The notes under the pieces were generated by a model that saw only the letters and a list, made by a program, of their open reading frames with translations, was not told the DNA's origin and ran no database searches. From contig OZ316894.1 in NCBI GenBank assembly GCA_973895155.1, forward strand, positions 9,262,234 to 9,326,233: DNA of 64,000 bases, read 5' to 3'. The stretch comes from Marsupella aquatica. Taxonomy: Eukaryota; Plantae; Marchantiophyta. Positions 22,881-58,589 of the stretch are shown piece after piece (positions within the stretch are counted from its first letter, which is position 1; every line of letters starts with the position of its first letter). Position numbers and translations under genes: made by a program.

Positions 22881-23090
22881 GCCTCCTGCTTGCTGCCCTC
22901 AGGCGACGCAGATTCGCTGACGGACTTCTTCAGATTGTGCAGCACCAATCGAGTCCGAAATGCGATGGCCAAGAGTGGCAGTCGAGGGGCTTGCAATTTG
23001 TGTCAACCACAAGCCAGTTTCAAATCCACCAGTGACAGTTGGCGCCCCGGTAATTGCACATCCAAAAACCTACAGTCAATTGCGCATTTA

Positions 23091-30804: not shown

Positions 30805-33800
30805 TGCCTCGATTGCTCTAAGATCCTAAATGCCTCAGCCTCCTCCCCGTCCCTTCCTCTTCGTCAGCACACCAGACCAAGCTCTTCCTCACGTCTTGTT
30901 CGTTGCTCGCTAGGCTCATCCAATCCTTCACTCTACTTTACCCCGTCTGTCCTCATCCAGATTCATCGTCTGGACATTATCATTCCTCCTCGATCAAACC
31001 TGTCTCTGCAAGTCCGTCATTCATGCATTCTCCCGATCCTGCCTTGCCCCGCCCTGCCCTGCCTGGTATCCATCCCCTACTCCATGGTGCCATCCATCCC
31101 GCCCTGCCTCTCATCATCGAGTCGACTACCAACTCATGCAAGCCGCCAGCCCGCCTGTCAACGAATCTGATTCTTTCCACCACCACTACGGCAGATGCAG
31201 GGATCTATCCTGCAAGCACAAAGCACAAAATCCTCAACGTGTGCACGTTCGTCACTGTCAGCTAAGTTTCAGAGTATACATTTTTACGGACGACAATTCT
31301 GCGCCTTAACAAAGAAGCGATGATCACAGAAGCCTCTTATTATGCGACGAACGTCTCTCACTTTCAGCTACGATGTCAGAGCAAGGTCGCAACAACGATA
31401 TCGACGACAATTCTGCGCCCTAACAAAGAGGCGATTCATGATCAGAGGATGAGCACACAACCAAAATGACTGATGTCAATCACGGTCGATAGTCGATACG
31501 GTACCTTGCCTGCCTCCGTGCTGCGCGTCGATCGCGTTTCATGTTTGCATCATACCAACGATCTCTTTCGGGAGTCCTAAATCTCGAAGAGCTGTCTGAA
31601 TGTCGAAGAAACGTAGGAGTCACAATTTTCTGTACAGTAGTTTGATTGCGAAGGCACACGAAGTTTGTGGCAACGAAACTAAGGTACTTTACTGTACTGT
31701 ACTGTGCTGTACTGTACTGCAGTGGTGACTGTGGTCAGGCACCGACTGTGGTGGGGTTAGTCAACTCTGTCTGTTCTAGGGAAGGGGTCTTCTATGGAGC
31801 AAAGGATGGGGTTTCATGAGTCCTTAGAACCAACTCGCATGTGATCGGCCCTCAGTTTTCTGGCGTAAAGGGTGTTGGTTTCATGAGTCCTTGTCTAGCC
31901 AACTTGCGTGTGAGCACCCCAATAGTTTTAGGCCCTCTAGCTGACTTGTGGGAGCATATAAGTGAGTGAGGGAAGGATCCCTGAACAGTATCCAGTGCCA
32001 GGCCTGACGGCAAAAAATTAGGACGGCAAAAAATTAGGAGTTCGAAGAGCAAGTTAGGGCCTGGATGTTTCCAGCCCTTGAGGTTACAGCCTCAAAATTC
32101 ATAATAAAACAAAAGCCCAAACATTGCAGGGGAGCTGTCAAACATGATCTGCATTAGTTTTGTGACTACTGCGCATGAGCTGGTAAACTAAGGACTGCTA
32201 CATCTGAGTTGGCTCTTAGGATTGAAGCCATCCCCTCCCTTGCCTGGGTGGAAACTAACCAGGTGGTAACTAAAGTGCTTTGGTCACAAGAATAGTGAAC
32301 AAATTAGTATCTATGTATTTTTTATTGAGTACCACCCAAAAGACCAACCACACTTGCCCTACCCTTAGGGCTGTCTTGCATGTGAGGGTCTTCAAATTAT
32401 ATACTCTTTTAAGTGATCAGGTGGCACTTTGTACTCATTGAGCCTTTCCTGCCTCACCCCCCTCACAAGCCAGTCCTCACCGCAGTACAAGTTTTTTTCC
32501 CTGACTTGTGTTCAGTAAAATTGTGTGAGAGTGGCTTTTCGGTAGTCCCATGTTGGGGGATTGTAAACTACACTTGCTTATGTTAGTTGGCTCTCATGAA
32601 TGCTTATGGCGATGTTATGTATATTCCTTCCCAGTTTTCCAACTACAACAAAACCACAACCAAACCATAACATTGTGTCAAAAGGACAACAACAAAAGCA
32701 TTTGCCCATTCATACATACCCTGTGTAATGAATAGATGACAGAATTAGATGTGATTGAGCGAGGCTGCAGTGTTTTATGACAAAATGACAATTTGATACA
32801 ATCAGCAAGGACTCATTCAGGCCCGATCAGTTGATGCATAGCAGCAGCTTGGTGGCAATGTGCGAGCAAAACTAGGAATTCTCAATCTGCTGGAGGATCA
32901 ATCCCAACAAAAAATGGCATCGTAAGGGTGCAGCGGCAGTGAGCAACCAAAAAGACGTTTGAGCAGACTTCTCTCATCTGTTCAACTTAACTGATGACCT
33001 GGCTCTCACAAATTCCAGCACAATCGGGACATGGGCTGTAGATCATGCATGTGAACGCACAAGAGCAACCACATTACCCTTCATTACAGTTTGTTCAAAG
33101 GAGCAAGTGAAAAGTGCACATCTCATCCGGGATTTTGGAGGGCAACATTTTGCACAGATCTACACATATGGAGAGACAATACTCTGTTGTGCCCTTGTAT
33201 AATCGTTAACCGTTAATGACAAGCGGTGACACGGAAGGCCATGTAAATTTCACACATACCATTCATAGAGATCCTCTGGACAAGCAGAGATCTTCTTTTT
33301 CCCAGCATGTTTGGGAATGATGAGGGCCGGTTTTTTTGAGACCACCACATGCAAGACAGCCCTTAACTCTTAGGGCTATCTTGCATGTGCAAGAGTCCTA
33401 AAAAAGCCGCCCTTACCAGCCCACAAATGTCAGGAAAAAGTGTAAGCCTGAATCTAACCTCAATCAAAGAACATAGACGTTTGATGCGCCCACTCAATTG
33501 AACATAAACGTGTGATGCATCCACTCAATTGAGTCTACTCCTTTGTCTTCTTATGATCAATGTTTTTTTGCTTTATTGAGATTTGAAGGTTTGGGACCTC
33601 AAGGCCCAGAAAATTTCCGACCCTTGCCCCTTGCATCTCAACCAAAGACGCCATCAGGACTGCCAAATTCTCACTTCATGAACTCATGCCACGGGTTTAT
33701 TTCATGGCCAGAAAGCAAAGAACCTTGCACATGCAAGACAACCCTTAACTACACAAAGTATGTGGTCTTTGGGAATATCACTTTGAAAAATAATAGTAAA

Positions 33801-34728: not shown

Positions 34729-37700
34729 ATCTCCCCCTTGACTCTGGTCTAGGGGAGGGTAATACTGCTAACCTATATGATTCCTCGACGGGAAGTTCTG
34801 GACGAAAACCAAAATGGTTTCCCCTCTCTAACTAGAGCATATCATAACTAAACCGTAGCCTATTACTAGGAGTGAAAAAGAGCTTATATCAATAATTATA
34901 GCGAATGTTAAGAAAAACCCTTACTTGTGATGCAATTACAAAACCTGTAGCACATCACAATGTCTAGAGAAACCTTCCAAAGGAATCACTTTGGTAAATG
35001 CGTTAGCTGGGTCGAGTTTATTGTCTATCTTGACTAGCTCAAACAAATTATCAAACACAACCTGTCTGATAAAATGGTATCAGACGTCTATGTGCTTCAC
35101 TCTATTGTCCATCACCTAGTTCACAACAAGGTGGAGCGCACTCTAACTATCACAATGGAGCTTCACATTCCCCTATGGCAATCTCATTTCAGTGATAAGT
35201 CTATCCAACCAAATTGCTTCCTTCGTTACTTCTGCTGCTGCAACATACTCTGCTTCTGTAGTAGACTAAGCAATACACTTTTGCAAAGTAGACCTCCAAC
35301 TTATGCATCCATCGCCAAGTGTGAACACGTACCCTGTTCTTGATCTTCTTTGGTCCAGATCTTGTTCATAGCCAGAATCTACATAGCCAATCAATGATCT
35401 AGAATTCTTTGCATTTGCATCAAATAAAAGACCATGATCCACGGTATCCTTCAAGTACCTAATAATCCACTTCACTGCTTTCCAATGTACCTTCCCTGGA
35501 TTCAACATGTACCTGCTCACCTTGCCCATAGCCATGGCAATTAAAGATCAGGTCTAGTGCAAGTCATCACATACATGAGACTTCCCACTGCCTTATCATA
35601 AGGAACCTTTGACATCAGCCCTTCTCTATCGCATCTGTGGGACAAAAAATTGATGATAATTTGAGGTGTACAACCAAAGGGGTACTTACTGGCTTACTAT
35701 CCCCCATGTTGAACCTAGCAATTACCTTCCTCGCATAACTGCTATGTGTCAACCATAGCTTACCAACCTCCAAGTCCCTAGTGATCTCCATACCCAAAAT
35801 CCTCTTAGCTGGCCCTAGGTCCTTCATCTTAAACTCTGCATTGAGCAGTGCCTTAAGCTTAACAATCTCAGACCTTTTCTTGGCCGCAATAAGCATGTCA
35901 TCCACGTAAAGTACTAAAATAATGAACCCAAAAGGCAACATTTTTCACCGGTTTCAATATACACAAGGGTCAAACACACTCTTATGAAAACCTTGTGACC
36001 GAATCCAATCGTCAAACCGCTTGTTCCATTGTCTTGGTGACTACTTCAACCCATACAAGGATTGCAGCAATCTGCAAACCAGTTCCTCTTGTCTTCTCTT
36101 CACAAAACCTAACGGCTGTCTCATGAAGATCACCTCTTCCAAGGTGCCATAGAGGAAAACTGTGACAACATTCATCTGATCTAGCAGCAGACCAAACATT
36201 ACAATAAGTACACACAATAGCCGTATTGTTGAGTACTTAACAATTGGTGAAAGGACCTCATTGTAATCCATATTTTTTTCTTGTGTGAATCCCTTGGCTA
36301 CCAACCTAGCCTTGTAGACCTTTGATCCACCTCCCATAGATTGATCCTTCAGCTTGTATATCCACTTGTTGTCCATCACTTGCTCACCCTTAGGCAGCTT
36401 AACAAGCTTCCAAGTTTTGTTGTCCTTCAGTGACTGCATCTTTGTATGCATTGCTGTAGTCCACTTCTACTTCTCCTTTGAAGCACTTGCCTCATCAAAT
36501 GAAGACGGTTCCCCTTCTTCCAAAATTAACGTATCACCCTCATCATCAGATGCAAATTCATCCTCTTGCAGTTGAGATGAATCAACCCACTATCCATACC
36601 TAGGAGGAGCGCGTATAGTGCAACCAAATGTTCTTCTAGCCAATAACTCCGATTGAATTGCATCTACTGGTACAATTTGAAGCTCAGTAGCATCCACTTG
36701 TTGCTCACCAGCATCAACAAACTACTCTTGTTCCTTTGGCACAAGAACCAGCTCCATACTTGGAGCACCTCTCTCTCCGATCATGCACTTCATGATCAAT
36801 CTCCCCCTCAACGAGATCTGGGATAGGAGATTTTCCTTTGTCAGTACGGGAGACCTGAGTATTCTCTCCCTCCTTCAATAATCTGGATTCATTGAAGGAA
36901 ACATCCCTACTAACAACGAGCTTACAGGCAATAGGATCCCATAGTCTGTAGGCCTTCACACCACTCTGATACCCAAGAAAAATATATTTCTTGGACGTAG
37001 GATCCAACTTGGTCCTATTCTGCTTTGGCGTGAGAGCATATGCATCACTTCCAAAAACTATCAAGCCATGATAGTCTGTTTGTCGTTTATAACGCATTTC
37101 AAATGGCGTTTTGAAATTGATTGCACTAGAAGGAGAAAAATTTACCAAATAAGCTGTAGTATTGACAGCTTCTGCCCAAAATTCCTGTGGTAAACCTGAT
37201 TGGCTCAGCATACTCCATGATCGCTCCAATAGTGTTTGATTGAGCCTCTCAATGACACCATTCTCCTGCGGAGTATAAACTATGGTGAGATGACGAGTTA
37301 TCCCCTGTTCAACATAGTACTCTTCAAATTCTATGGAAGTGTACTCCCCATCGTTGTCTGACCTCAGACTCTCCACCCTTGTATCCAAACACTTAACCGT
37401 GTTTCCCGTTTGATTCTCCACTTGGGCCTTCCACTTTGTAAAAATGGACAAGACATCAAACTTATGCATCATGAAATAAATCCATAAAAATCTTGAGTAA
37501 TCATCAATAAAAGATACATAGTACAATTTTCCAGAATGTGAGGGAGTCGAGGATGATCCCCACACGTCACTATGTATGTACTCAAAAACCGTTTTGGAAC
37601 GATGAGTTCCAACACCGAAAGCACGATGATGCTGCTTTCCAAAAATGCAATGCTCATAGAAATCCAATTTAAAAGATTGCAAATCAAAAATGAGCCCATT

Positions 37701-40219
37701 CTTTTGCAAGATAGCCAAACCCTTCTCACTCATGTGGGCTAGCCGTGGATGCCATAGTTAAGTCATTTCCTCGTGAGACTTGGTTACATTGGCCTCTCCA
37801 CATACTGTATTGCCCTACAGCACATATAATTTCTTCTATCTGCTCCTCTTCAAAATCACTGTCTCTCCCGACATGACTTGAAGTTCATCATCAATTACTC
37901 GCCATTGATGACCATTTGTATCCAACACACCAAGTGAAATCAAATTCTTATGCATGCCATGTACAAACCTGACTCCGAACACTGTGCGCACAATGCCATC
38001 AAACATTTAAATCTTTACAGACCCAATACCCTCAACTCGATAGAAGTGATAATTTCCCATCAAAACTGAACCGTTTGACACAGAATAAGAATTGAAATAC
38101 TCACAAATGTAACAAATGTGAAAGGAGCAAACACAATCAAGAATCCACACATCATTTTTTCTCCTAGATGAGGTGCACAGGGCATACATCTGGCTTCATA
38201 AAACATACTCATCATTGAGTAAATCACTTTCTCCATCAGCACTAGCCACATTGGCTGATGAAGATTCAACTACCTTACCCTTACAATCCCTCTTAACGTG
38301 ACCAACCTTGTGACACTTCTAACAGACTACTGGTTTTCTCTCCTGGGACTTCCCCCTTGAAGCAAATCTCATCCTAGATTTACTTCATTCCTTGCCATTC
38401 GTGCGTTGCTTGGGATGCCGTTGTGACCTCCCATGATTCACATTCAAGACAACACCAGATGACAACGTTGTCTAGGCTTGACCTAATTTTTTTTGTGCAT
38501 CATCTGACAACAAAGAGCTTACCATCTCATCGTATGAAATAGACTTTAGGTTTCTATACAAGAGAACATGCTTCAAACCTTGATAAGATGGGGGTAAGGA
38601 GCTAAGAAGAAACAAGGCTTTGTCCTCTTCTTCAATGCCCCACTAGAAGAAACCCACCCTTTTTGAGACCACAAAGAACATGACTCATCCGAGACCTTCA
38701 TGAAACAGTGACTCCAAGGTTGTTGGTGTCATGTTAGTCACACCTCCTTGACTGAGTTTTGGTGAAGTTTTGGGGAGTCATGTTTACAACTTTTAGGGAA
38801 GTTGCAACTATAACTCAATTAAGGCAATTAGGTTGAAATTATACAAGTGATTCTACATTAAAGTACAACTTATGAGAGCACAACATTTAAACCCTTCAAC
38901 CTTAAAGTATGGGATCTAACCCAATACATATGATTTTGGATACACCATATGTCATTCCACATTAATTTAATCATAGTTTGGTCATACCATTTTAAACCAT
39001 TATTGAGTATTCCATCATTATTCCTGCCCCCATTTAGACACAATGAAGCCCTAGCCCCATTCAACTACAAAAAGGCTAGCTTTCTCAAAGCTTGCTAACC
39101 TAACTTAATGCTTTTTGTAGTCAATCTCTACTTTTTCTATCGAGGTCTTCTGGTCGTGCCAAAGGAGTGCTTATCACCCAATTTCAGCCTCACATATGCA
39201 GGTTGGGTTTACTTATTGCCATGTCCCATAAACCTTCATGTACTTTCGGCCGGCCCCCTTCATATATGACAACCAATGCATGCTTCAGTTTCAATATAAG
39301 TCCAACTTAAATGTCCAACTTAAATATATATGAAAAGTACCCCAGCCCTAAAAATGGGTACTTTTCATAATGGTAATATGGGGTCATACCTGACTATTTG
39401 GCCACATTTTTCACCAAAGGGTGTGGCTCAAAGTTGTTCCTAACCACTCACCCCACATATAACTATTGCGTAAGTCCTTTGGTTATCATTAGGCAAATCA
39501 TAGACTTTCGTGTCTCTTTGTGAACTAATGTCTCCACTTCAATGGGAAGACAAGTGAATGGTCTTTGCGTTCGGCGTTTCTCTCTCGCACAAGGTTTTGG
39601 GAAGGTTTTTCCAAGGAGTCGGTTTGCCTCAAGGGTTTGCAAGCCAAACGGAGCTTTGCGTGCCATTGTCATTGAGCTGGTGGGAGGTCACCGAGGCTTT
39701 GGAAGAGGGAGGTCGAATGCCGTCTGTCTGACGGGAAATTCTGTCTTTGGGACTCGTGATGGTCGCGAGATGGATTGTCCGATTTGCGGTTGGAAGCAGA
39801 GACTTGCTCGGAACGTCGAGCGCTTGTGTACAAGGCAGATAGAGCTGCGTTTGTGTTTGTGCCGCGATGTAGTGTCTTTGAATTGGAAAAGCGGGATTGG
39901 CGTGGGGCATCCTTTCCTCGAATGCAGGTCTCCTTTGAGGAATCTTTGGCGTCGCAATGGCTTTGTCTTGTGCCATGAGCAGAGGGAGGAGTTTTGCTAT
40001 TAAGCTGTACTCAAGAATACAGAGTTTGACATTATTCAACTCCTGAACAAGCTGCTCGCGATCTTCCTGTGTCTTTTCCATTGCCTTTTTGTTGTCTTTT
40101 AGGAGGAATCTCCAGCTGCGGCTTCCATTCAAAAGGTTTAGTATTGTCCAACTGATACTCTGTATCAATGTCTTCATCTACAAACTCGCTCACATCCAGG
40201 GGTTCCTTATTCGACATGA

Positions 40220-40796
40220 TGAGCCCTACTTCCTAAAAGACACCTTCAATCTGCTCATGGATCAGATGAACGACATCGAGTCTTACAACGGGGGAGACCA
40301 GGGGTATCTGAACAAAATCTTTCCTTCATGGTACCGGATCCCCAAGCGCCTGAATTTCCTGAAGCATTTCTGGTTGAATGAGACAAAGGAACGAGACAAG
40401 AAGACCAATCTCTTCCAAGCTATGGACCCTCCATCGTTGCATGTCATCCACTACCTTGGCAGGAAACCATGGCTCTGCTACCGGGACTACGACTGTAACT
40501 GGGACTCCGGAGAATACCGGAAGTATGCGAGCGACTCTGCACACAGCCGCTGGTGGGAAGTGCATGACACTATGCCTGATAAGCTTCAAGACCAGTGTCT
40601 GCTACTGGCTAAGCAGAAAGCAAACATCGAGTACAATCGGAGGAGGGCTGAGGCGGCGGGCTTCGAGGATGAGCATTGGAATATCACCATCACCAATCCG
40701 CGGCAGAACATTTGCACTAAGAGCTTTTGCAATTGGCGCAGCATGCTTAAGCATTGGGGAGAACTGCGCGTATCTCGCAGGACACTGCAGTTCTAG
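40220..40796 (+). pseudogene. C-terminal fragment of a GT8 xylan glucuronyltransferase / glycogenin-like (GUX/PGSIP) gene inside the CACTA element
   Basis: TFNLLMDQMNDIESYNGGDQGYLN, RIPKRLNFLKHFW, HYLGRKPWLCYRDYDCNW, ASDSAHSRWWEVHDTMP, HWNITITNPR, CNWRSMLKHWGE. The N-terminal half with the DxD motif is absent. Confidence 0.85.
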
Positions 40797-43229: not shown

Positions 43230-45764
43230 AGGCTAATGGAAATCAACAGGCAAAACCTGTTGTGAAAGTTGCTGTAAATGGAGGTATGTCCGTCATTGAT
43301 TTTGTTTTCCTTGCCACTCTTGAATTTTGCATTGTTTTAACGTTTGGATAGTTTTCGCATTTCTGGTTCCTCATGGAATGATAAATATCGTTGCAATGTG
43401 GATTGTTTTCATCTTTGGAATTCTGCAATGATTGATATGAAAATGTGCTTTCCCAGATAATGGTAGGCCCAAGTCGACCCGTGCGTCCACTTCCAATCGT
43501 AAATATGTAAATGTCACTGATGCAAAGGTAGAAACCAGGGCCACACGTTGTCCACAAGTTGTCACACAAGGCATCATTTGGGAAAAATTGGTGCCTAAGT
43601 TGACGTATAGTATCGTTTTTTTCGTTACGCCTTTCATCAGATGTGTGTGGTAGTTTGCCTTTCCTTTTCACATGTTTGTCTTTATTCTGCCTAGATAGAT
43701 GGCATTGCGAGTCAGAGCAAAGATCACGTAGCAAATGGCACTGCATTTAGCGAAGAATGTGTATTATTAAATCCTTCCAAAGGGAAAGGGCCTTTCACTC
43801 AGCATTCTCTAGACACAGAAGCATTTACAGCATACGGTCGGAAAGATGCTAGTAGATTCGTCTCCTGTGATCTGGTTGGAGCTTCACCTCGACCAGGATT
43901 ACGGTCTGGTTCAAAGCTATGCAGTCAATGTGGCGGGTCCAGCACTGACCTGATGTGCACAGATTGTTGGTAAGGTTCTTGAATTATAATTTCTTGAGAA
44001 GACCACTCTGGACTGTTTTTGACATAGATGTCGGTCCAGACGCAGATCATGACGATCCGATGTTGTATCGTGTTATATATTCAACTCCAACGGTGATAGA
44101 CACTTGATTGTAAGGAACCACAGTGGCTTGCTCCTTTGCTATGGTACATGGCACTCCGCTACTGCCAATGTAGTTCATAGCTTTGGTGTCAATGTCGAAG
44201 TTACAAGTCAAAGCAGATCAGAATTTAGACCTTTTGATGCAGTAGTGCACTCTGGAGGGAAAGTATACTCGGTGAAAGCAGTTTTGAAACGCTGCAAACA
44301 GTTTTGAGCAAATGGTTTGTGAAGAGTCTAAACCCTAAGGATTTGGATTGGTGCATGAAGGTTTTACAGGAAGCAACCTAAGCGCTTTTTCGCAGCAAAA
44401 GAGGTGATGACACGCTCACTACATGTTGTAGGCTATTTCTAGTCATGAGTATGTGGGTATCCCGTGTGTATAGAAGTAACGTCATACTGTGCAATAATAT
44501 GCTTGTCAAGGCTCCACACATGGCGAGCCTTCAGCAGTCCTTTTCACCTGTAAGTTGCTGTGATCATTTTGGGGCCTCGTACTTAGAAAAATGATAAAGT
44601 TACATGCTCTGTACCTTTGAGTGTTGCAATACAGGACTTTGGGTGTGTTTAGCTAGATGCTGATGCCTAAAGTCTACACCTAAAAATTGTCGTAGGTAAT
44701 CTGGTCATGCTTGTCAATTTCGACAGGATATTATCTCTATTAGACATCTAGATTGACAAATCAGGAGTTTCCAAGTGCAAAATTGATGTAGTAAATACCG
44801 CGTGGACGTCATGCTATTAAGGACGGGATTCTCCAAATTGAGAGATGTGTATATGCATTTCAGGTACCCGAACAGAATTCATCGCCTGGAATTCTGGTTA
44901 GTAAAGCTTTGACGGGATTCTTGATCCATCATTATCTTCAGGGCAAAGGTGGTCGTGTTTATGAAGCCAGTTGCAAAAGCATAGATTGTCTATTATGCAA
45001 TCCCTAGAAAATTTTTGTTGGGTTAATTTTGGAAGCCGACTGGTGTGACAGGAAAAGGTTGTGGAGTTGTTTTCTTCAGAAGATGAAGAAGTCAAAGTAA
45101 CTTGAGAGACGTACGATGACTTTCAAATAGCTACCCAGATAAAAGTTTATGAAACTCGAAGTGCACTGTCACCTAGGTAGGATACTTTCTAAAACTAGCA
45201 CGTCTATGTTTGACAAATCTGGGAGCTTGAGCTGTGGCCTTGAAACACCAGCATGGATTCAGCAATTTTCCGTCAGGATTTCTCTATTCTGATCTTTGTC
45301 ACTTTGTAGTATCCGTCCTAGAGATAGAAAGTCCTTTTTGGTTCTGGATAATTTTCTTCCTGTATGTTAAAATTTGATTTCATTCTTGTGATACTTTCCA
45401 GCATGGAGGGATATAGAATTGCGTATCCATCTAGGTAAGATTCGTTGAGAAAGGACATTTAGACGGCTATGCAAATGTATGGAAACCTTTAAATAAAATC
45501 TCGCTTGCTCCAACCTAAATCCTATATTAGTCTTGGATTGTTGCTAATTTACTGTCTCTACAAAATGTATTGGGAGATTTGGTCTGTATGCTACAGGTAG
45601 TCCTCGCTCCCACTTTTCTTCTTGCTTGTCAATTTACGCATTATTTTGTCTGTTTCTGTGGTCTTCAAGGATGATCCTGAAGGTGCAGAGGTTGCATACC
45701 ATGACATACTCCAACTAGAACCAATGGAATTTCTCAATGATACTGTGATTGACTTCTATATTAA
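43230..45764 (+). pseudogene. Intron-containing 5' part of a ULP (C48) SUMO protease gene, cut off at the start of the catalytic domain, inside the CACTA element
   Basis: Exons MEGYRIAYPS (about 45403-45433) and DDPEGAEVAYHDILQLEPMEFLNDTVIDFYIK (about 45670-45764) resemble OTS/ULP2-type proteases. Upstream GT-AG-bounded open segments at about 43231, 43457 and 43695 are assigned tentatively. Confidence 0.65.
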
Positions 45765-47959
45765 GTAGGTAATCTCAGCTGCAAAGGATCTTGGTTTTCG
45801 GGAGGCTCCGGCAAATCATGTTGTGTTCTATTGTACCAGTGTTGCTAAAATTCTAGGGAACATCTTAGTAGTTTGACACTTTTTCTTGGGCTTCTATTGG
45901 CTCGTTGAACTTTTAGTAAAGTTGCAGTTTGTGGTCCTAGCAACAGTTGAATATTTGCTTATATCATGTGGATGTCATTCATGCTCATGTTCTGTTTATT
46001 TTTTGTAGTTAATATGTTATATTATTAAAGTGTTAATATGTTATATTTCTAAAGTGATGATGAACATGAATGTTTTTATGTAATGCAATGTGAATTGTGC
46101 ATGAATTGATTATCTCTTTTTATGAACTATGACATAATTGTTATAATTCATTTTGGATTAATCATGGTTACAATTTACTTAAATTCAATCTCAACCTTAT
46201 TAGTTATGAACATGACTATGTAGAGACTCAAATGAAAGTGTTATGTGACTCGGACCAGGGTCTCCCTTGGTCTATTATGTGACACTAAAAGATCACAAGC
46301 TAGTTGCTTTTAAGGGCAAGTAAGCCATGGACATGACTTACCCTGTGACTAATTAAAGTCACATTGCAGTCATGTATCAACAAGACTAGATTTCATAATG
46401 GAGTCACAAATCAGTCACAAATGGGTATAAGCAAGTCACAATGTCCAGTATCAATAATGACTTCTAATTTTTGGTCTCAACTTTTGCAACTCCAAAGGTC
46501 ACAGCCTGGGTCACGTCACGTTGAGTCACAATGAAGTCACATGACCCAAAATGAGTCACATATTGCGGTCTCAGATAAGCTCGGATTCTTCTAGTGCCCT
46601 TACTGAGATTAGATAAATCAATAGCTAGGTTGTCGAATTTATCCAAGTGATCTTGGAGCTTGTTCTCCTCTTTGAGCCTAAGGCTCATCAAGAGAGACTT
46701 CTTGTACAATCGATCTGATGCATCTCTCGATAGTACTTTTGCCTTAGGGCTTTGAACAGAGATGCATAATCCGCGTAGTCATTCAACTTCTTGATGATAT
46801 GCGGCTTTAGATAAAGCATCATCGCATTCACTGCAATTACTTGTTCCTGCCTCCACCTCTTTAGTGGAATGTCCTCATCATCATTGTACATCTCTCGTGT
46901 AGAGAGAAGATGATCTAGGCCCATAGTACAAAGAACTCCTTTCACTTGCTTCTCTTAGAGCAAGTAGTTCGTACGTCCATCATACTTTTCCACCTCAAAC
47001 TTGACACCTCCAAACTTGGATGCCATCTCTTTTTCCTTCACACCCCCCTCTACTCGCTGCACCAATGATTGTTCCGGTGTCACGTTTGCTTCCTCCTGCT
47101 CCTCTCTCTTCACCTCAAACCATCGTGATGATCTTTGTGCTTCAAGCTCCACGTCTTCAAAAATCTCCTCTGAATCACTCATGTGAGAATGCAAGAAAAA
47201 ATGACATTTTCTCAACTTCTTCAAAGAACTCAAAACTTATCACCGTCGCGTAGCCCACAAGCCCAGCTCTCCAATGCTAAAAACCAAAATCAAAATTGAA
47301 CTCCGACGTAAAACTTATTCACTTTTTGGTCGGGGTGTGGTAAAACTTGCAATTCTTCCTCGTTTTGACCACCTCGGGGAATAACCAAAATGTGAACTAG
47401 TACCTAAATATCAAAAATGCAATTTTATTGGTGCACCATATGGCCAACTATGATGGCTACCTCCTTGCCGAAGATGAACAAAAAAAAGTTACCATTCGAC
47501 GGACGAAATCTTTGACAAACGGCTGAAAACACACTCTCTATTTTTTGGGAGTATTCCCACACAGAGCAGCAGGGATCACAAGGGGCCGTTCCCCTGTCCA
47601 AGCGGTTAAAGCAAAGGGTGGCAGGGCCCGGGATGCGATAGCAATCAGAAACCGGGAAAAGGAAAATAAAAAAAGCTTTAACAGTGTCCACATATGGACT
47701 GCCAAATACCAGAAACCCACTTCAAGATTGCATATATAGCACTAGTTTGAACCTTGGTTTCCTTGCAAAATTTTCATCAGCATTTGTTTCAATCCTAAAC
47801 ATTGAACACAAAGGTTGTCGACTTCGGCCAAATGGAGCAACAAATCGCAATTGGAGAGGGCAGGGTGCAAATTCACAATGAGATCATCACTAATGGAGCA
47901 GGAGGCTTTGGAGGCATTTAAGCTGAATTTGCACAGGCCAATGTCATCGATAGGATCTC

Positions 47960-48502: not shown

Positions 48503-48996
48503 TGTCCAACATAGCATTTTTTACTAACCTATCCCCCAAATTGACCATCATTATCAACCTGTCCCACAAACTATTTCAATTCTAAGTAGACATCACCCTA
48601 TTCATTAAAAGTGTATCTTATTTTGTTCACTTTTAGGCCTCAAAATGTACATTTTTTGGTCTCAAAATGTACACTTTTTAACCCCAAAAGGTATACTATA
48701 GTACAATACTCTACACCTAAATAATCAATTGTAAACTTGAGGGAAAAATAATGATCTTTACTAGAAGGAGTCTCATCCTAGTTCATTTATAAAAGATGAA
48801 CATGGTGGTATGTCTGATGGCCATCACTTTATATCTTGCCCAAATGTACACTTTTTGAAAGCCAAATATACACTTTCTATTGCCCAAATGTTCACAAATT
48901 GAATAATAATTCACTTTTAATGAATAGATTGATAGACCCCCTTTTTGTACATGGGTAACTATCTTTAACTCATGTACTTAACCCAAGGTACTCCCT
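48503..48996 (+). repeat. Left terminal inverted repeat (about 145 bp once the nested MITE is removed)
   Basis: TGTCCAA..TTTTTTACTAACCTATCCCCCAAATTGACCAT..AACCTGTCCC.CAAACTATTT..TAAGT.|CCCCCTTT.TGTA.ATGGGT..CTTTAACTCATGTA.TTAACC..AGGTA.TCCCT. Confidence 0.88.
48592..48933. mobile_element. Small MITE nested in the left TIR, 4-bp TSD AGAC
   Basis: TIR ATCACCCTATTCATTAAAAGTG / CACTTTTAATGAATAGATTGAT. AGAC at 48588-48591 and 48934-48937. Internal CAAAATGTACACTTTT repeats. Confidence 0.8.
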
Positions 48997-49737
48997 TTTG
49001 GCCCTGGAGCATTTTTTAAAATGGAAGTACATTGGGAAAGATATAGAACCGCAACAGGAAGGAAGCCACGAGCCTCTTGTCAAGCCTGCCTTTGCAGGTT
49101 TGTTGGGGCAGGGAAGAAGCCAGGGTCATTGTCACACCATTCTGAGTAGTGTAGTAGTATATCGTGCTATTAGAGTATGTACATTTGGTATGAGTGCTAT
49201 TGGAGCCGATAAGGTTCTGTCAGGTTTGTGTGAGAGGGTACTTCTCACTTGTGAGGCATTGAAAGGTCATCTTTCAATGTTGAGCCTTGGAGAGAGAGGA
49301 GCTTGAGGAGCTTGAGTGTGGCTATGGTGGCTGTGAGCTCCGCTTGTGTAACGTGGATTCCTTGAGTAGTGCAAGGTGCGTTGGCTTGACATACGTGTGT
49401 GATCGGATCGGTGCGGGATCGATGGGGTATTGTTGACCGGGATCGTTGCGCCGATTGTATGGAGATTACATTGAAAGATCACATTCGAAATCTGCTGTAC
49501 GGACTGTGCGGACAGAAGTTCGATTGATTGAGTTGTTGACGGTTCGTGGTAGCTCGGATCGTGTGTTGTTATCAAATAGATCGTTGGTATCTTGACCTGT
49601 ATCGTTGTTGTCCGATCGGCCTGCTTCCCGATCGATGTACAGATCTGTGATTGGTGACAGGTTTTGAGTTGGAGGTCGATTGATGATTCGTGGAGGAAAG
49701 CGAATGTTGAGTAGATGTTGGACAGTGGAAGTCGATC

Positions 49738-49830
49738 CGTGAGGCTTCAGATCCGATTGCCGGCTACTGTGAGGCTTCAGATCTGATTGTCGGCTACTAT
49801 GGGGCTTCAGATCTGATTGCCAGCTATTGT
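49738..49830. repeat. 30-bp tandem repeat, 3 copies
   Basis: GTGAGGCTTCAGATC(C/T)GATTG(C/T)CGGCTACT units. Confidence 0.85.
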
Positions 49831-50068
49831 TGGATGATGTTGGCAAGGCGCAGGTGAAGCGACGGCTCTTTTCCTGAAGGAACGGAGCTGCCAATGCCCC
49901 GTGCGACGGTATCATCGTTTCAGTGAAAGAAACGAGGGTCAAAGGTGTTGAATCAAGCTGCTGCCAATTCTGTGGAAGGGCTGCGTTTTTCATGAAGGAA
50001 ATCGACAGTTTTCGGGAGCTTTTCGTGAAGGAAGTAGTCGTTTTTGGGGTCAGGTGTGAGGTGCACAA

Positions 50069-50307
50069 GGTCACCCATCCCAAAAGTGCTCGCACGAGGC
50101 GACGCGTGAGGTCACCCATTCCGAAAGTGCTCCCAACCGCGAGCGCGAAGTCACCCATCGCGAGCGCAGGCAGGCGCGAGGTCGAGGTCACCCATCCCGG
50201 GGCTATTCCGGGCCATGAGCGCGAGGGGAGGCACAAGGTCGAGCGCGAGGAGGTCACCCATCCCGGGGCTATTCCCAGCCGCGAGCGCTTAACTGGCAAG
50301 TTCTCAT
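50069..50307 (-). promoter_or_regulatory. 5S-rRNA-derived Pol III internal control region (A box plus C box) with four extra C-box copies
   Basis: The reverse complement of 50248-50307, ATGAGAACTTGCCAGTTAAGC-N23-GGATGGGTGACCTCCT, mirrors plant 5S ATCAGAACTCCGCAGTTAAGC-N23-GGATGGGTGACCTCCT. Further GGATGGGTGAC-like boxes at 50069, 50110, 50150 and 50186. Confidence 0.75.
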
Positions 50308-53300
50308 CCCACCTTGTGTACACACAAGCTTTGACAACTTGTTGTTTAGATTCAAGCGCCAGGGGGCTTTATACACTTCCCGGTTTGTTTAGAGGCCTAT
50401 TCTAGGCCAAATCAGAGGCCGTTTTAGGGTTTTTGATACTTCTGAGTCCATCTAGATTCACAGATTGAACCAATTTTGCCTTGGTTCTCATCTACAACAT
50501 TGGAGTGCCATTGTGAAGCCTATTATGAAGGCTCTTCCTTGAACCTTATGTACATTGTCATATTGATTTGCATTTGCTTTTGTGTGGAGAGTTGAATGGT
50601 ATCCATTTTTGTTTCTGGATCCTCTTCACACATGTTTCCTGTTTATGCGCCATGTTAGTTTCGTGTGGGCGCTTGATTCCATAGGAGTGATCCGGGTTTG
50701 CAACTGGACACTCTAGTGTCCTGTGTATTTCTCTCTTGGGTGATGTTGGAGTGATGCCCAACACACCATGGTGAGTGCTTGTGGTTGTGGTGCTGACAGG
50801 GATAGATTGCCCTTAGGGTTAGCACATAGATTAGGTTAGGATTGGTCACCACGGATTCTTCTGGTGCTGCTGGATTACTCGATGGATGACGGACCGGTTT
50901 CACTCGGAGTGGGGCACAGTTTTGACCAGCGACATTGGTAGCAGTCAGCAGTGCAGCTTCAGACAGTGATTCTGATGAGGACTCAATGACCAGTTCTCCT
51001 CATCATCAGGTGGTTGCACCTTTGTTGTGGGATATGGACGAGATGTACGGGGCTACAAAGGGCCCACGACGATACTCTGGTGCAGTTGGCACAATTGATC
51101 TGGATGACTTCATCCAGGAGTTTGATACGTGGTGCGATATGCAGACATTGCATAACGTCACGTTGTTTACCCCTTTCATGGCATGGAAGGGATTATTCCA
51201 GCATTTGGAGGGGCCACCCATGGATGACTATCATGAGTTTCGGAAGGCTCATTTGGTTGAGATTGAGGCATGGAGGCAGCATTGGTCGCCTAATTACGTG
51301 TCCATCACCTATGGCACTAGTGCGGCTGCCCAACCCATTGCCACAGCTGGTGCTTCTTCTAGCAGCACTAGCCAGAGTGGCACACCATCCACCAGCAGCA
51401 CTCCAGCAGCATCCACCACTACTCCTGCCGGTGTGATTGTGACAGGAACTAGAGTTGCGCCAGCATTTAATCCTGTGGTGGAATTCTTTGAGGTACTGAA
51501 GCAGAACTATGAGGGTGTGAGAACTGATAAGTTGAAGGGTCTTCAGGAGTTCCAACGCAAGACTGGAGAAAACCTACGTGAGGCATACACACGTATGCGC
51601 AGATTGATCACTGTCACCAAGGGAGTGACAGAGGCTCAGGCAGTCCAGTTTTGGTATGCAATTTTGGACAGAGAATTGCGACGCAGAGTGAGAGATGTCA
51701 CTCTGCTTAGGGATGCAGATCCCACATTAGCAGTTGTTTTCACCCTTTCTGAGCGCATTGAGCTCAATATGGTGAATGAGAAGGTGGTGACTTCCGGATT
51801 TGCCAAGGAAGCACCAAAGGCTACATCTACATCCACACCACAGCCTACTGCACGGAAGAGCCAGAGGGAGAAGCCTACTGCACGAGAGTCTACCAGCCAG
51901 AGACCTGTGCCCTCTTATGCTGGACAGCAGTCATGATGTTGGACCTATGGTGGGGATCATGCACAGAGATATTGTCCAGATCATAGAGGATCAGGGGGAG
52001 CATCAGCGCCTGATCAGCGACAGTGTGATCACTGTGGAGCTCCTGGACACACCAAGGATAGGTGTTTCTCACTCCACCCTGAGTTACGGAGAGGAAGATC
52101 CCGTACACATGATCAGGGAAGAGGAGGAGGAGGTAGAGGTGGTGGATGTGGTCGTGGCATGCCACATGCAGGGAGACAGGGAGGTGATGCTACCCCTGCT
52201 GTAACCATAGATCCAAAGGATGCTAAGATTGCTCAATTGGAGCAACAACTAGCTGCCATGGCTAGTTCCCAGGTGAGACCTAATTCTGGTGATGGGGCAT
52301 CTACATCCTATGGACCTTCCACATCCCATGGTCCTTCCACATCTTATGGAGCTGATGGAGACCTTGCCACCATGGGATTCATGTGTGGCACTGCACATAT
52401 TGATGCATCAGCAGCTTTGACACGTGGGGCAGCCAAAGCTCTTGAGCCCCGAGGAGCAGTAGTGGAGTTAGATCCACAAAGGGGGGATGCACGTCGGCAG
52501 ACAAAGCTTCCTCAGTCTTTTACATTGTCAGAGACAGTTCAGACTGCCTCTATGAACCCGGTTCGGACAAACCTTGATGTGGGTAAGTTGGCAGAATCAG
52601 GTAGTGATGCAGTAGGGATGACAGGTACCTTGCTGGGGGCGGCTATTGCCATAGTACGCACCCCATTATTTTCAGCGATAGACATGCTGAACTTGGGAGT
52701 TGGTCCTGCAAAAGTGTTCAGATTGGCAGCTACACTCTGTGAGGACACTCCAGTGGTTGCTTCCCATGCAGAATCAACTTGCAGTGTTAATGCAGTGAAG
52801 ACCATGCCACCTACTGCTACTAGTGAGACATGGCATGCAGCAGCAACGAGGTTGGTGGATTTACCAGCACGCCCTGCATTTGAGAGGACTAGGTTTAAAC
52901 CTAGTGTTGTGTCATTGGATAATCGGAGTGGTATCTTTCGATTAGTTGGGCCTTTTGGAGCAGTATACCAGCCAGAGAGAGTGTTACTGGATACTGGTGC
53001 TCAGCCCTTGATGTTGGGGAAGTCTGCCATACGTGGATTGGGATTGCATCCAGAGGATTTGGAGGATTGTCCCTTTCCCATTCAGACTTCATTGGGGGGA
53101 CCTACACCTACACAGCATATCACCAGGAGACCACTTGATTTGAGGATTCAGGAAGGTCATACCACAGATAGCTCACAGATACAGGCGCGAGCTATACTGA
53201 CTAAGGTAGAGTCATATGATGTGTTGGTGGGATGTACAGTGCTCTACCCCATGGGATTTATTCTTGATTTTTGGGAGGAATCAGTGTCATATAGACCTAA

Positions 53301-53699
53301 TTAGCAGTCAGGAGATGCTCAATTGAGCAAATTGCCAGTGAGATTTAGTGGACCTGTGGGAGGCCCTAAATCCACACCATTGTCTTTGGTAGCATTCAGT
53401 GGTGTAATTGTTGGACTTGATGATTTGATTGAGGGTAATGCGCATGCAGCCGATGTTCCACCATTGGAGGAGTCTCATGAGGAGCACATCATGCGAGGAT
53501 TACCTGTTGGCAGTGTTGTGCCACTAGTGTGGGGCACTGCACAGGCCTTGCCACAGGCAGCAACACGATTGGTACATGATGCATGGCGTCATGCTTTTAC
53601 ACCACAGTCAGGAGCAGAGTAGTCTCTTGCAGATGGACCTGTGACTCTTTCACCATTGGATACCACTCCTATTGCTTGGCAGTATCCACCGGAGGGTAT

Positions 53700-54630
53700 T
53701 TGTTTGTTGGATCTTTTTGGTGGGATTAGCACTGGATTGGCTGCTGTTCTTCAGGCAGGAATTCCTGTGCGTCGTTATTTGTATGTGGAGACAGATGAGA
53801 CAACACGAAGGGTCTCATTGCGACATGTGGCTATGTTGGTGGATAGATATCCACAGTTGCTGCCAGTGGATGCTGTTCGTGGTTATCAGCATGCACTACC
53901 TGCTGATATTTTATTGTTGGGGGCGGATCATCTACATCGTGTTGGCCCCATTGATGTGGTGATTGCTGGTTGGCCATGTCAGGGCCAATCTAGAGCTGGC
54001 ATTGGGCATGGACTTCATGATCCACGTTCTGCATTATTTTGGGAGATGTTACGGGTGCTGCGTCATCTCCAGCTACATCAGACACAGTCTCCAGCATACA
54101 TTTTGGAGAATGTGCCATTGTTAGGTGATGATCGTAGTCGGATTGTTGCCAGTGTTCACCAGGTGAGGTCTTGGATTGGACCTGCTGTGTTATTGGATGC
54201 TGCACGTGTGGGTTCTTGTGCACATCATCCACGCTTGTGGTGGACTAATTTGATCCCATGTGAGGTGCTGAAGCGCGCATTTGACAATATTCCACGCTCA
54301 CCAGCCTTAGTGGTGGATGATATTTTGGATCCAGGGCGTCGTGCACAGGGTGTGACCCAACCTGATAGACCTCCATTGGCAATGGTCAATGCAGTTGGGT
54401 GCCCACGTTGTGCATTACCCACTCTTGTAAGCCACTCTGCTTCATATGCATTCAGAGCAGGTGGCCCTGGACTTGTATGGGACACAGCTCTCCAGCAGTT
54501 AGTGGAGCCTACTGCTGATGAGAGAGAGCGTGCTATGGGATTTTTGACTAACACCACTGCAGTTGCCTCTGTGTCAGAGGGTTTGCGGCGCCAGGTTCTT
54601 GGTCAAGCAATGGATTTGAATTGTTTGACT
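53700..54630 (+). other. DNMT3-like C5 cytosine DNA methyltransferase domain within pol
   Basis: Motif I LDLFGGISTG, II VETD, IV AGWPCQG (catalytic PC at about 53974), VI ENV (about 54106), VIII AHHPRLWWTN, IX ERERAMGF, X RRQVLGQAMD, in canonical order. Confidence 0.9.
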
Positions 54631-57600
54631 TGGATTATCAGCTTGGGAGTAGCTGAACAGTTGCGGATGCGCTCTGCCGGAATTACTGATTGTCCCTTGG
54701 TGAGCTTGCGGTCCACTGAGATAGTATTGACCACAGCTGGGGGCGAGCAGACAGTCCATGGACCTATGACAGGATTGGCGGCTGGACAGATTGTTGAGCA
54801 GGAAGGGACTGCTCAATCTACTGCTAAATAGCAATCATCGGCTATCTCTTCTACCCTACAAAGAGATATTAGGGATTTGGTGGAGAGTTGGGAACCATAG
54901 CTTGGCCCTAAGTTAACAGGGGAGGAGAGACGTCGCATGCATCAATTCCTGAAGAGTTATTGGAATTGTTTTGCATTCAGCATGAAGGATTTGGGAACAT
55001 TGAAGGGCCCTGGTATTCAGATTGAATTGGCTAGTGATGCGCCAATCTTTCGTAGGCCATACCGTTATAGTGACATGGAGAGAGCTCTGATTCAAAGCAG
55101 AACTCAAAATTTGTTGGAGGCTGGATTGGTGGAGATTTCATATGGGGAGTATGCATCTGCCACAGTGATGCCAGCCAAGAAGGATGTGCATGGCAATTAC
55201 ACAGATAGGCGCATGTGTGGTGATTACAGACCTATTAATCGCCAGACAAAATCTGATCGATATGCCATGCCCACACCTGAGGAGATCTTTGATGCTGTGG
55301 GGCATGCAAAGGTTTTCAGTTCATTGGATCTGAGGGCAGGATACCATCAGCTTCCAATTAGGCATGCTGACAAGTCCAAGACAGCATTCTGGGGGATTGA
55401 TTCTTATGGCAAAGATCGTTTGTATCAATGGTTATTCTTACCATTTGGGTTGAAGAATGCACCAGCTGAGTTCCAGAGAGTCATGGATCGAATCCTTGCA
55501 GGTTTGGATTTTGTCAGATGTTATATTGATGATATTTTGGTCTATTCTTCTACTGTGGAAGAACATCAGCAGCACTTGCAGACTGTGTTGGAGAGATTGA
55601 GAGCACATGGGTTGAAGCTCCATCCTAGCAAGTGTAAGTTCTTCCAAGACCAGATTGAGTATTTGGGCCACACCATATACCCAGGGGGATTGGGTGTACA
55701 ACAGACTAAAGTGGAAGCCATTACACAGATTCTTTGTCCTACTGATGTGAGTAGAGTTCGTGCATTCTTGGGATTGGCGAGCTATTACAGGAGGTATGTT
55801 AAAGGATTTAGCCAGCTTGCTAAACCTTTGACCATACTCACTAAGTTGGATCAGGAATGGATTTGGGGTGATGACCAGGAGCATGCCTTTCAGGAGTTGA
55901 AGCATAGGTTGGCATCATCCCCTATTTTGAGAAGACCCATTTCAGGCAGACCATTTCAGCTACACACTGATTGGAGTGGAATAGGACTTGGAGCAGTGCT
56001 GACTCAGAAGGATGATGAGGGGAATGAGTTTGTTGTGGCTTATGCCAGTAGATCAAACAATTCAGCAGAGGCTAAGTATAGCTCTTATGAGGGAGAGTGT
56101 TTGGCAGCAGTGTGGGCTGTTGCACACTTTCGTTGCTACTTGTTTGGTAACCCCTTCACCTTGATCACTGATCATCAGCCTCTTAAGTGGTTAATGGAGT
56201 CTGACAAGCTTACAGGGAAGCTTGCACGATGGGCATTATTGTTACACGAGTATGATTTCCAGGTGGTGCATAGGCCTGGAAAAGTGAACTTGGATGCAGA
56301 TGGATTAAGCCGCAATCCATGTACCAGTCAGCAGGATAAGACTGGAGCCAGATGGCATGATGAGTCAGATAAGGAGATGGTGCCAGGATGGCATGCATCT
56401 GCCTTTCTTTGTTGGGTGCCAGCATACAGTGGATCTGTGGACTCTACCTCATTGGATGGAGTGGGTGATGAGTCTTCAGATGTGGATGTTGGTGAGGTAA
56501 CTTCTGGACAACAAGATATTCACAATGATGTGAGAGTGTTGGAATATCTGCGCAATAGTTCTATTGTTGGCAGTGTTGATGCCAAGGAACGTGACAGGGT
56601 TCTACAGAGAGCCAAGAGGTTTCGATGGGAGGGAAACCATCTTTTGAGAGTACTGCATGATGGTAGGATGTTGGTGGTACCAAAACCATCACAACGAGTA
56701 CATTTGGTGCGACATGCGCACGAGGAGTTGGGTCACTTTGGTGTGAAGCGCACTTACAACTTGCTGCAGACACAGTATTGGTGGCGTGGTATGCACACTC
56801 ATGTCTAGCAGTTGATAGCTAAGTGTGTGGTATGTGACAGAGTGAGAGCATCATTTAATGCTCCCACTCCCCAGTTGCACCCATTACCGATCATGGGTTT
56901 GGGATATCATTGGAGTTTGGATTTTGCTGGTCCATTACCTCTTACCCAACGTCATAATCGGTATGTTTTGGTCATGGTGGAGCACTTCTCCAAGTGGATT
57001 GAGCTAGTGGCGTTGCCAGATAAAGCCAGTAGAGGAGTTGCTGCTACATTTTTGGATCGTGTACTCAGTCATTTTGGAGCACCAGCTGAGGTGTTGACTG
57101 ATCAGGGAACTGAGTTCCATAGAGAGTTTGAGAGTTTGTGTGAACAAGCTCTGATTGATCATTGATCATCGCACTACCTCTCGTGATCATCCTGAGGCAG
57201 ATGGATTAGCTGAGAGAGTTGTGCAAACTATGAAGAGAGGATTGCGTAAGTATGGCTTGCAGGTTGGTCATCTGGGAGATTGGGATCTCCAGCTACCTTG
57301 GTTAGCTATGGGCTACCGTTTCAGTCGGCAAACATCACTTGCATCCTTCTCACCCTACTTTTTGCTCTATGGTAGAGAGCCAGATTTGCCAGCAGCTATT
57401 CATCGTCATGCTGCACCAGTTGTGAACTTGGATGATCCTGATGTTTGGGTCAAGGTGTGTTCAGAGAGAGCACGGGTATTTCAGAGAGTGATGCCCATGG
57501 CTTTTGACAACCTTGCCATTGCCCAACATCGTGATACTTTGAGGTATGCCACTATTCGTGGAGGAGGTTACCGTGCAAGCATTCGACGATTTCATCCTGG

Positions 57601-57822
57601 TGATTATGTTTATTTGCAGCAGACAGCACCCACGACACTTGATGTGACCGCATGCCGGACAATCTTACGTGTGCGTGAAGTGTTGCCTTCTGGTGTCCTG
57701 ATGTTGGAGGGACGCGATGGTATGGTTTGGAAGGATCATGTGCGCAACTGTGCACCATGTCACCTTCCCAACATTGATGGTACAGTAGATCCAAGCTTGG
57801 CACATGTTCGTGCTGGCTTGAA

Positions 57823-57961
57823 ATGTATGTTGTGTGGATCTGCTCAGGGAGCAACTACTATGTTGATTTGTGATAAGTGTTCTAGAGGATGGCACATGTC
57901 ATGTTTGACACCACCATTGCAGGTGATTCCTAGTGGATCATGGTTGTGTCCTCAGTGTCGG
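57823..57961 (+). other. PHD finger at the integrase C terminus
   Basis: C4HC3 pattern CMLC...MLICDKCSRGWHMSCLTPPL...GSWLCPQC. Confidence 0.93.
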
Positions 57962-58445
57962 TGAAGCCGACTAGTTATCATTTGTGTTCTCTTGGCAGAT
58001 ATGGATTGCAGGTAGGTGATCGATGGGGCTCACTTGCACCCGGCCTCCTGATCTTCACACCTAAAAAGGTGTATATCAACCTTGTAGAACTCATGGCTAG
58101 CTAGAGTTAGGGGACCTTACTCCCAGCTAGGGGGGCGATTGTGGGTTTTGGACATGTGTGGACATGAGTTCCACTTGTATTCCATTCTCTTGTATTTGTG
58201 ATGTGGCAGTGTGACTATGTCTGGATGTATGTGACAAGCGATGTATGTTGTGTAGCGATATGTATGCGCACGCATCATGCCTGCCCTATCGCAATGCAAG
58301 GGAGCCAGCCCCCGAGCCAGCCTAGTACTCCCTTAATCATCATCATGGGAAGGAGTCAGCCCAGGTCAGGGTAGAACAAGCCAGGGTAGAACAAGCCAGG
58401 GTTTGGCACGGCCAATAGTGCCTCACCATGTGTCATGCAATCAGT

Positions 58446-58589
58446 AGGGAACTACCTCAGGTTAAATACATGAGTTAAAGTTAACCCATATACAGAAAGG
58501 GGGTTGACTTAGGAATTAAAATAGTTTGAGGGACAGGTTAGTAATTATGGTCAATTTGGGGGATAGGTTAGTAAAAAATGGTTTGGACA
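58446..58589 (-). repeat. Right terminal inverted repeat
   Basis: The reverse complement aligns colinearly with the left TIR and ends in ...TTTGGACA. Confidence 0.88.

Follow-up and report, generated by a model that had tools for sequence, protein, structure and literature searches.

A Ty3/gypsy element of liverworts and Sphagnum with a DNMT3-like methyltransferase ahead of a conserved, candidate leaky stop codon

The role of DNA methyltransferases carried by transposons has been open since 2018, partly since the known hosts are hard to manipulate. The closest described system is KnitGypsy-Dnmt3 of Klebsormidium nitens. According to the available text of PMC5890265, it is, like the element reported here, a gypsy element whose DNMT3-related domain is non-permuted and under purifying selection. 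In the same text, the Klebsormidium domain gave no methylation in yeast, a result called inconclusive by its authors, and SymbioDIRS-Dnmt3 methylated CG de novo in yeast. SymbioDIRS-Dnmt3 and EpiLTR/DAM-LTR (PMC5890265; bioRxiv 10.64898/2026.05.21.726589) also involve retrotransposon-borne DNA methyltransferases, but they belong to other element classes and hosts, and the accessible parts of these sources treat the captures as independent. Two later papers, including PMC12344493, which cites the 2018 paper, mention "streptophytes" with DNMT3-bearing elements in their available text. A literature search covering papers open without subscription gave no description of DNMT-bearing gypsy elements in land plants; the supplementary trees of those two later papers may hold bryophyte sequences.

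Herein, we describe a 9.1-kb Ty3/gypsy element in a liverwort genome. The window, the whole 64,000-nt stretch of Marsupella aquatica DNA that was analysed, contains the entire copy at 49130–58274 in the arrangement A-internal-PPT-B, with a single A and a single B repeat (features lie on the forward strand unless marked otherwise). Its extent was set by end motifs and by a 4-bp target-site duplication (TSD), TCAT, found at 49126–49129 and, with four identical bases, directly after the right end at 58275–58278. The copy starts with TGTCAC and ends with CACGCA; the ends of its relatives read TGTCAYG...CACGACA. The polypurine tract (58128–58135) stands directly 5' of the B repeat, as in the relatives, and the B repeat forms the 3' end of the element (58140–58274), with 58175–58272 matching the B repeat of a relative, L035, at 71%. 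The order Gag-PR-RT-RH-INT, a Ty3-like RT, TG..CA ends, a short TSD and the polypurine tract assign the window copy to Ty3/gypsy, with the exception that it lacks two identical terminal LTRs, self-comparison having found no conventional LTR pair or direct repeat.

Relatives have the longer layout A-coding-PPT-B-A-B. This A-coding-B-A-B form was seen in L035, L054/L071, L047, L048, L055, L064, L076 and L077/L078, and the internal B|A junction of the relatives reads CACGACA-NN-TGTC. The shorter A-internal-B form was seen in the window copy, L017 and L034. A 4-bp TSD is exact in the window copy and in six of ten distinct two-ended relatives; three of the ten have one mismatch, and one has no duplication. 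No tRNA primer-binding site was obvious by eye after the first A repeat in the relatives. We infer that both layouts are expected from opening a one- or two-LTR circle at a palindrome; the short form could instead come from B-B recombination. Isolated A or B matches in L003, L021, L022 and L025 are possible solo repeats or neighbouring insertions. A short degenerate tandem repeat lies inside the 5' leader of the element (50067–50290).

KnitGypsy-Dnmt3 has DIRS-like A-coding-B-A-B repeats as well, as described in the accessible text of PMC5890265, and the window copy represents a reduced form of this arrangement. The link to Klebsormidium drawn in an earlier note on this DNA therefore holds for the repeat structure; it does not extend to a DNMT within a continuous Pol ORF, which was found neither in the window nor in groups A and B (defined below). 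The split-repeat ends, which LTR finders will miss, and a C-terminal PHD finger are additions to the features listed in that note.

The retrotransposon sits between inverted repeats at 48503–48990 and 58453–58589 (88% over 86 nt; 84% over 55 nt), which in turn interrupt a broken transposase, giving a three-level nest. The transposase carries what we take to be PIF/Harbinger-like motifs. The inverted repeats at 48503–48587/58507–58589 were considered as ends of the element and rejected, as they lie outside the TSD and come from another insertion. Elsewhere in the window, a Copia-type integrase remnant was recognized by eye at 36714–37757 (−), and short degenerate tandem repeats occupy 19814–20360 and 23091–23705. 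The host gene for sorting nexin 2 lies at 27417–30825 (−). An exon of this gene matches Calypogeia fissa at 94% identity, Marchantia paleacea at 86% and mosses at 65–66%; being closest to liverworts, it bears out the land-plant host proposed earlier. Further host gene stretches at 22062–22898 (−), 14762–15367 (−), 40047–40796 (+) and about 45650–45770 (+) are presumably Tic20-like, cytochrome b5-like, glycosyltransferase-like and SUMO-protease-like, respectively.

From 50926 to 57165, frame 1 carries gag, protease, C5 methyltransferase, RT, RNase H and the beginning of integrase, after which the remaining integrase and the PHD finger lie in frame 2. The gag region (51034–52200) has a probable start codon at 51034, assigned from Marchantia ORF1 N-termini, and a zinc-knuckle-like region seen by eye. 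It is 62–68% identical to the N-termini of the Marchantia ORF1 proteins P0122, P0124 and P0125 and gives a weak Retrotrans_gag match. The aspartic protease (52879–53301, LDTGA) matches Asp_protease_2 below the cut-off (E 0.003) and is 82% identical to P0121. Downstream of the methyltransferase, a variable C-terminal tail of ORF1 occupies 54661–54828, and P0121 (87% identical) terminates at the same place. It is followed by RT (54955–55680; RVT_1, E 9.6e-35), for which Ty3 is the nearest solved RT, RNase H (55945–56310; RT_RNaseH, E 2.2e-36), and an integrase with H2C2, core and C-terminal parts (56686–57800), which a stop (56806) and a frameshift (near 57155–57165) interrupt. The PHD finger closes ORF2 (57824–57964; PHD, E 2.2e-11). 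Its nearest solved counterparts are the PHDs of CHD4, DPF3, ATXR5 and KDM5B, which are mostly readers of unmethylated H3K4. This resemblance hints at possible targeting of integration to silent chromatin.

The DNMT3-like C5 cytosine methyltransferase domain (53698–54660) was identified by PF00145, PDB sequence match and predicted fold. Motif I starts at 53698, followed by PCQ of motif IV at 53974, ENV of motif VI at 54106, and then VIII and X, so that motifs I–X run in linear order. The segment 53623–54828 matched PF00145 with E 1.3e-10 and 41.7 bits, above the cut-off of 22, the profile check that had been suggested. DNMT3A gave the best PDB sequence match (E 3e-11), ahead of DRM2 and M.HaeIII, and the AlphaFold model (pLDDT 71.8) had DNMT3A/B as its top Foldseek match (E 2.6e-14). 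With DNMT3A nearest by both sequence and fold, the domain is DNMT3-like and non-permuted, unlike DRM, as the earlier note had described it. DUF3444, the C-terminus of host plant DNMT3, gave no Pfam match in the window ORFs or in the nine relatives scanned.

The catalytic Cys of motif IV is present in 204 of 207 relatives and the Glu of motif VI in all 207. Two substitutions recur among these DNMT relatives: Glu replaces Pro before the catalytic Cys in 66, and the motif I Phe is Cys in 26. The first motif-VIII Arg is retained in 202/207 and the second in 201/207. The earlier note had also reported His for Arg in motif VIII; we located it at the first Arg (54226–54228), where four of the 207 relatives have His. 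Because the His of the window copy is private and nearly all relatives keep the Arg, the window-copy enzyme is probably inactive.

Between lineages, the dN/dS of the DNMT domain was 0.05–0.18 for unsaturated pairs, saturated pairs being ignored. L019 and L023 gave 0.11 with each other and 0.05 and 0.07 against L081, and the window gave 0.13–0.18 against three Sphagnum-like loci. Within subfamilies of decayed copies, the values were 0.25–0.70, high as expected after insertion. Because of these low ratios between lineages and its presence across liverworts and Sphagnum, we regard the DNMT domain as a family trait under purifying selection. A recent, unselected capture, raised beforehand as the alternative, is not what the dN/dS comparison found.

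The two protein searches found 244 and 80 relatives; those with a named host included proteins of Marchantia, Calypogeia, Riccia and Sphagnum and, more distantly related, of Closterium. With E values up to 1e-30, a DNMT profile search yielded 476 clusters (50% identity). Among the best 150 of these, 31 were RT-RH-DNMT-INT-PHD, 48 were DNMT-only fragments, and others were PR-DNMT or DNMT-RT; these differing domain orders indicate at least two positions in pol for the DNMT domain. In Marchantia polymorpha, apparently intact ORF1 genes such as Mp4g09160 and Mp5g06330 carry the annotation "hypothetical protein". P0159, an RT-RH-DNMT-INT-PHD polyprotein, has a MethyltransfD12 match at residues 1833–1865 (E 0.0035, below cut-off), and its element possibly carries both methyltransferase types. 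A K. nitens protease fragment falls into one cluster with the Gag-PR-DNMT protein P0186, to which the window DNMT is about 33% identical over motifs I–VIII. The Klebsormidium-linked Gag-PR-DNMT proteins P0186, P0187 and P0190 end 12–13 residues past the motif X block, and RT would therefore be reached there by another form of recoding. No relatives were found among viral contigs. Genome contigs yielded L081 plus four weak Streptomyces matches, which were dropped. L081 (CADCWO010000201.1) is an intact plant-type element with a circular assembly and a 127-nt terminal overlap in a cyanobacterial genome assembly, where it is probably contamination.

The window copy contains six in-frame stops (51934, 53302, 53620, 54829, 54898 and 56806) besides the frameshift and is therefore dead. 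The gag stop at 51934 is probably decay because P0122, P0124 and P0125 are open there; this stop, 56806 and the frameshift were judged as decay from open relatives only. Across four runs, the variants listed include replacements, at 70–100% of contig depth, of three stops (53302, 53620 and 54898) and of the codon for the motif-VIII His; contig depth does not equal copy number. These three stops are private decay. At 54822–54837, no variant of 3% or more was listed in the contigs of the four runs, with all bins covered; the 16-nt invariant stretch alone is not significant, given 33 variable places in 221 nt. The stop at 54829 and its 3' context read TAG CAA TCA (54829–54837), a candidate readthrough site of the form UAG-CAR-YYA on account of its conservation and the motif given in PMC3159437. 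The junction as a whole reads AAA TAG CAA TCA. The earlier placement of the DNMT in one frame with gag, protease and RT is thus correct as to the frame, and the uninterrupted polyprotein derived from it is not, given the conserved stop at 54829.

Conservation of this stop was followed in 80 metagenome and 5 genome loci, of which 57 had a measurable DNMT-RT linker. Group A comprises 31 loci (28 distinct) with a DNMT identity of 58% or more and is Sphagnum-like via a match to S. fallax P0155; group B comprises the distant loci L019, L023 and L081; and group C comprises 23 stop-less loci. In group A, 30 of 31 loci have a stop in the aligned column, and all 21 frame-intact linkers have it in frame with RT. 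It is followed by CAA CCC ATG, not CAR-YYA. L015 of this group (2686–2700) shows the ATG six bases past the stop and then a serine run, and the pyrimidine codons of the group A serine run are able to pair with purine-rich RT codons downstream.

Group B carries TAG-CAR-YYA in all three loci (TAG CAG TTA or TAG CAA TCA). The context CAR-YYA thus follows the stop in the window, L019, L023 and L081, and it takes two forms (CAA TCA and CAG TTA) across lineages near synonymous saturation. Its background in the loci is 64 of 33,248 stop triplets (0.2%). A perfect CAR-YYA also follows the decay stop (53302–53310), at which sister copies have a sense codon; for this reason, our argument is built on conservation and not on the motif by itself. 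L019 is open for 1369 codons and L081 for at least 1162, followed by a single stop and then 1047 codons. Both contain exactly two long ORFs, Gag-PR-DNMT and RT-RH-INT-PHD, and each may be an assembly into which many copies have collapsed. DNMT-RT linkers of four lengths (310, 370, 439 and 484 nt) all keep the frame. Marchantia ORF1 proteins, compared as protein sequences alone, share an end about 98 aa past motif X. In a DNMT tree that took in element-borne domains only (and in which P0134 is mislabelled), the stop-bearing and ORF1-ending rows group into a single 25-row clade (99/93), apart from group C. A quick RT tree placed the stop-less P0236 and P0191 among stop-bearing rows. Because the stop at 54829 is conserved in the family, it is, by comparison of these loci, a family trait, and the DNMT domain ends a predicted ORF1, Gag-PR-DNMT. 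The finding that 30 of 37 PR-DNMT proteins end after the DNMT was set aside as proof, being biased by a search restricted to proteins of 2000 residues or fewer.

The stop is dispensable in part of the family. Group C has a stop followed by CAR in 0 of 23 loci, 11 of its 22 frame-intact linkers are fully open, and in several of its copies the stretch between gag and protease is broken by no more than scattered stops. P0236 (2811 aa) carries the same domains in one frame without a stop. A possible RNA stem 3' of the window stop (54838–54935) had a folding z-score of −1.2, and the mean scores were −2.8 for group B (3 loci), −1.0 for group A (31) and +0.3 for stop-less loci (23); other windows of the same elements fold equally well, and the stem is weak.

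We propose that most ribosomes would halt after the DNMT and release Gag-PR-DNMT, and a few percent would read through the stop into the in-frame RT, RH and PHD-tipped integrase. Because it is fused to Gag, the DNMT would, if ORF1 is translated, be packaged at coat stoichiometry, with many molecules per particle, and be released by the element's own protease. It would then meet the cDNA during synthesis. This whole scheme, a conserved UAG-CAR-YYA stop with low readthrough, a Gag-level DNMT and likely methylation of the element's own cDNA in the particle, has in our estimate a probability of roughly 60%. Within it, readthrough is the likely recoding route, and the family DNMT is likely to be catalytically active on DNA, as far as sequence can tell. 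Methylation of the element's own cDNA, probably at CG, has about an even chance of being its function. The accessible parts of PMC3159437 and PMC2194720 give UAG-CAR-YYA as sufficient for readthrough in plants; PMC2194720 also describes a look-alike junction of Tca2 that directed no readthrough in a reporter.

The reading closest to the earlier note, a continuous Gag-PR-DNMT-RT polyprotein in which every stop, 54829 included, is decay or an ancestral lesion in non-autonomous copies, does hold for group C and P0236. For the stop-bearing elements it is very improbable, as the stop occupies the same position in liverwort, Sphagnum-like and group B lineages near synonymous saturation, and the ORF2 behind it is intact and under purifying selection (RT dN/dS of 0.03–0.07 in group B). 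The invariant junction, the linkers and the two-ORF loci largely refute it. Bypass of the stop by splicing is unlikely to a lesser degree. The TAG or a nearby AG would serve as the 3' splice site, and gag, with or without PR and DNMT, would be joined to RT, as reported for Ogre, whose intron lies between PR and RT, and for further plant LTR elements. A U-rich run 5' of the TAG in group A does resemble a splice acceptor, and all six proteins from one search that extend from PR-DNMT into pol domains come from annotated gene models of Marchantia or Sphagnum in which the junction is skipped. The junctions of these models, however, differ from one another, with none at the stop itself, and the window and group B have no U-rich tract. 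Splicing needs no frame, yet the stop stays in the RT frame across all four linker lengths; in the window and the three group B loci, the CAR-YYA context fits readthrough. The use of TAA in place of TAG in group A was considered as an argument against a splice acceptor and dropped, since the proportion, 8 of 31, is no higher than decay gives at similar sites (up to 0.26) and the TAA copies do not cluster. Splicing is a known means of setting the Gag/Pol ratio in plant LTR elements, according to the available text of a review (PMC12786077).

Separate translation of RT-RH-INT-PHD, through reinitiation or with the help of an internal promoter, and its recruitment in trans to the particles are improbable, standing between splicing and the continuous polyprotein. 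An ATG at 6 nt past the stop in 29 of 31 group A loci at the A position would suit reinitiation, and Tca2 has a junction promoter in the account of PMC2194720, as far as available. Against this, L019, L023 and L081 have no Met in the first 80 codons past the stop, a stretch that reaches well into conserved RT, and the first Met in the window comes after the conserved W-x-P-x-x-G-P-x-L-T-G block. Free Pol would also require an extra packaging route. The alternative that deserves most weight accepts the proposed expression and changes the target: the DNMT would act on the insertion site or, once imported into the nucleus, on host chromatin, or it would serve as a decoy that binds DNA. We consider this doubtful, yet less so than splicing. 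The nucleus is within reach of a free Gag-level enzyme, the integrase bears a chromatin-reader PHD, and the Klebsormidium domain had no activity in yeast in the text of PMC5890265. A mere decoy fits poorly with the full catalytic set kept in about 200 diverse relatives, and in 31 of 150 representatives the DNMT lies between RH and INT and so stays beside the enzymes that handle cDNA. CG depletion is of no help here. The CG o/e of the window element is 0.33 in the coding part vs 0.8 in the G+C-rich 5' leader; it was rejected as a sign of self-methylation, since C>T decay in the relatives is 0.18 at CG and 0.24 at CHG, an equal CHG-type decay that is explained by host silencing.

Our preferred reading thus remains low-level readthrough with a Gag-level DNMT. 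A fuller history can be offered tentatively, and we hold it to be clearly less probable than that reading: an old, widespread bryophyte clade in which a captured DNMT3 moved in front of a tobamovirus-type leaky stop, particles of Gag-PR-DNMT, each with many active methyltransferases, would pre-methylate the cDNA, and the readthrough-made, PHD-tipped integrase would insert it by cutting the internal palindrome of a circular intermediate.

What is new in this element is the conserved, candidate leaky stop that would place a methyltransferase with Gag, and the literature open without subscription that was searched holds no description of a conserved leaky stop after a DNMT. The stop bears on dose, as it would tie production of the enzyme to the coat and not to the rare copying enzymes. 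A coat-level dose would suit an enzyme working inside the particle and would make off-target methylation of the host more likely when elements wake. With the system now shown in liverworts and Sphagnum, the apparently intact Marchantia ORF1 genes make the purpose of the DNMT testable in a model land plant. Element DNMT genes can also inflate DNMT counts in bryophyte annotations. If our reading is true, stop-codon readthrough inside pol joins the repertoire of plant LTR elements, for which the review lists only frameshifting and splicing in its accessible text (PMC12786077).

As far as the available parts of the cited sources describe them, the candidate site resembles several recoding systems. 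In tobamoviruses, benyviruses and pomoviruses, type I readthrough (UAG-CAA-UYA; PMC3159437) likewise involves UAG-CAR-YYA in frame with the polymerase, and the window copy shares the two adenines 5' of the stop; in contrast, the present candidate site belongs to a retrotransposon, and group A has CAA CCC. In MuLV, Tca2 gag-pol and SIRE1 pol-env (PMC2194720), a stop also sets the ratio of upstream to downstream protein, but here the candidate stop lies inside pol, after the protease and a captured chromatin enzyme. The Ty3/gypsy element Ogre (cited in PMC12786077) makes Gag and protease in excess over RT-RH-INT, as we propose here; an intron achieves this in Ogre, whereas the present element has a single in-frame stop and the DNMT in ORF1. 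The non-permuted DNMT3-type catalytic domain is also that of host DNMT3 in non-flowering plants (PMC6453930); the host enzymes include DUF3444, whereas the element domain lacks it (nine proteins scanned), is intronless and resides in a transposon. For KnitGypsy-Dnmt3, the words "readthrough" and "frameshift" are absent from the available text of PMC5890265, and a PHD was not found in its supplements in text form. In that account, the DNMT lies in the Pol ORF of an algal-lineage element, Klebsormidium nitens being the host; in the family described here, it closes ORF1, and the host is a land plant.
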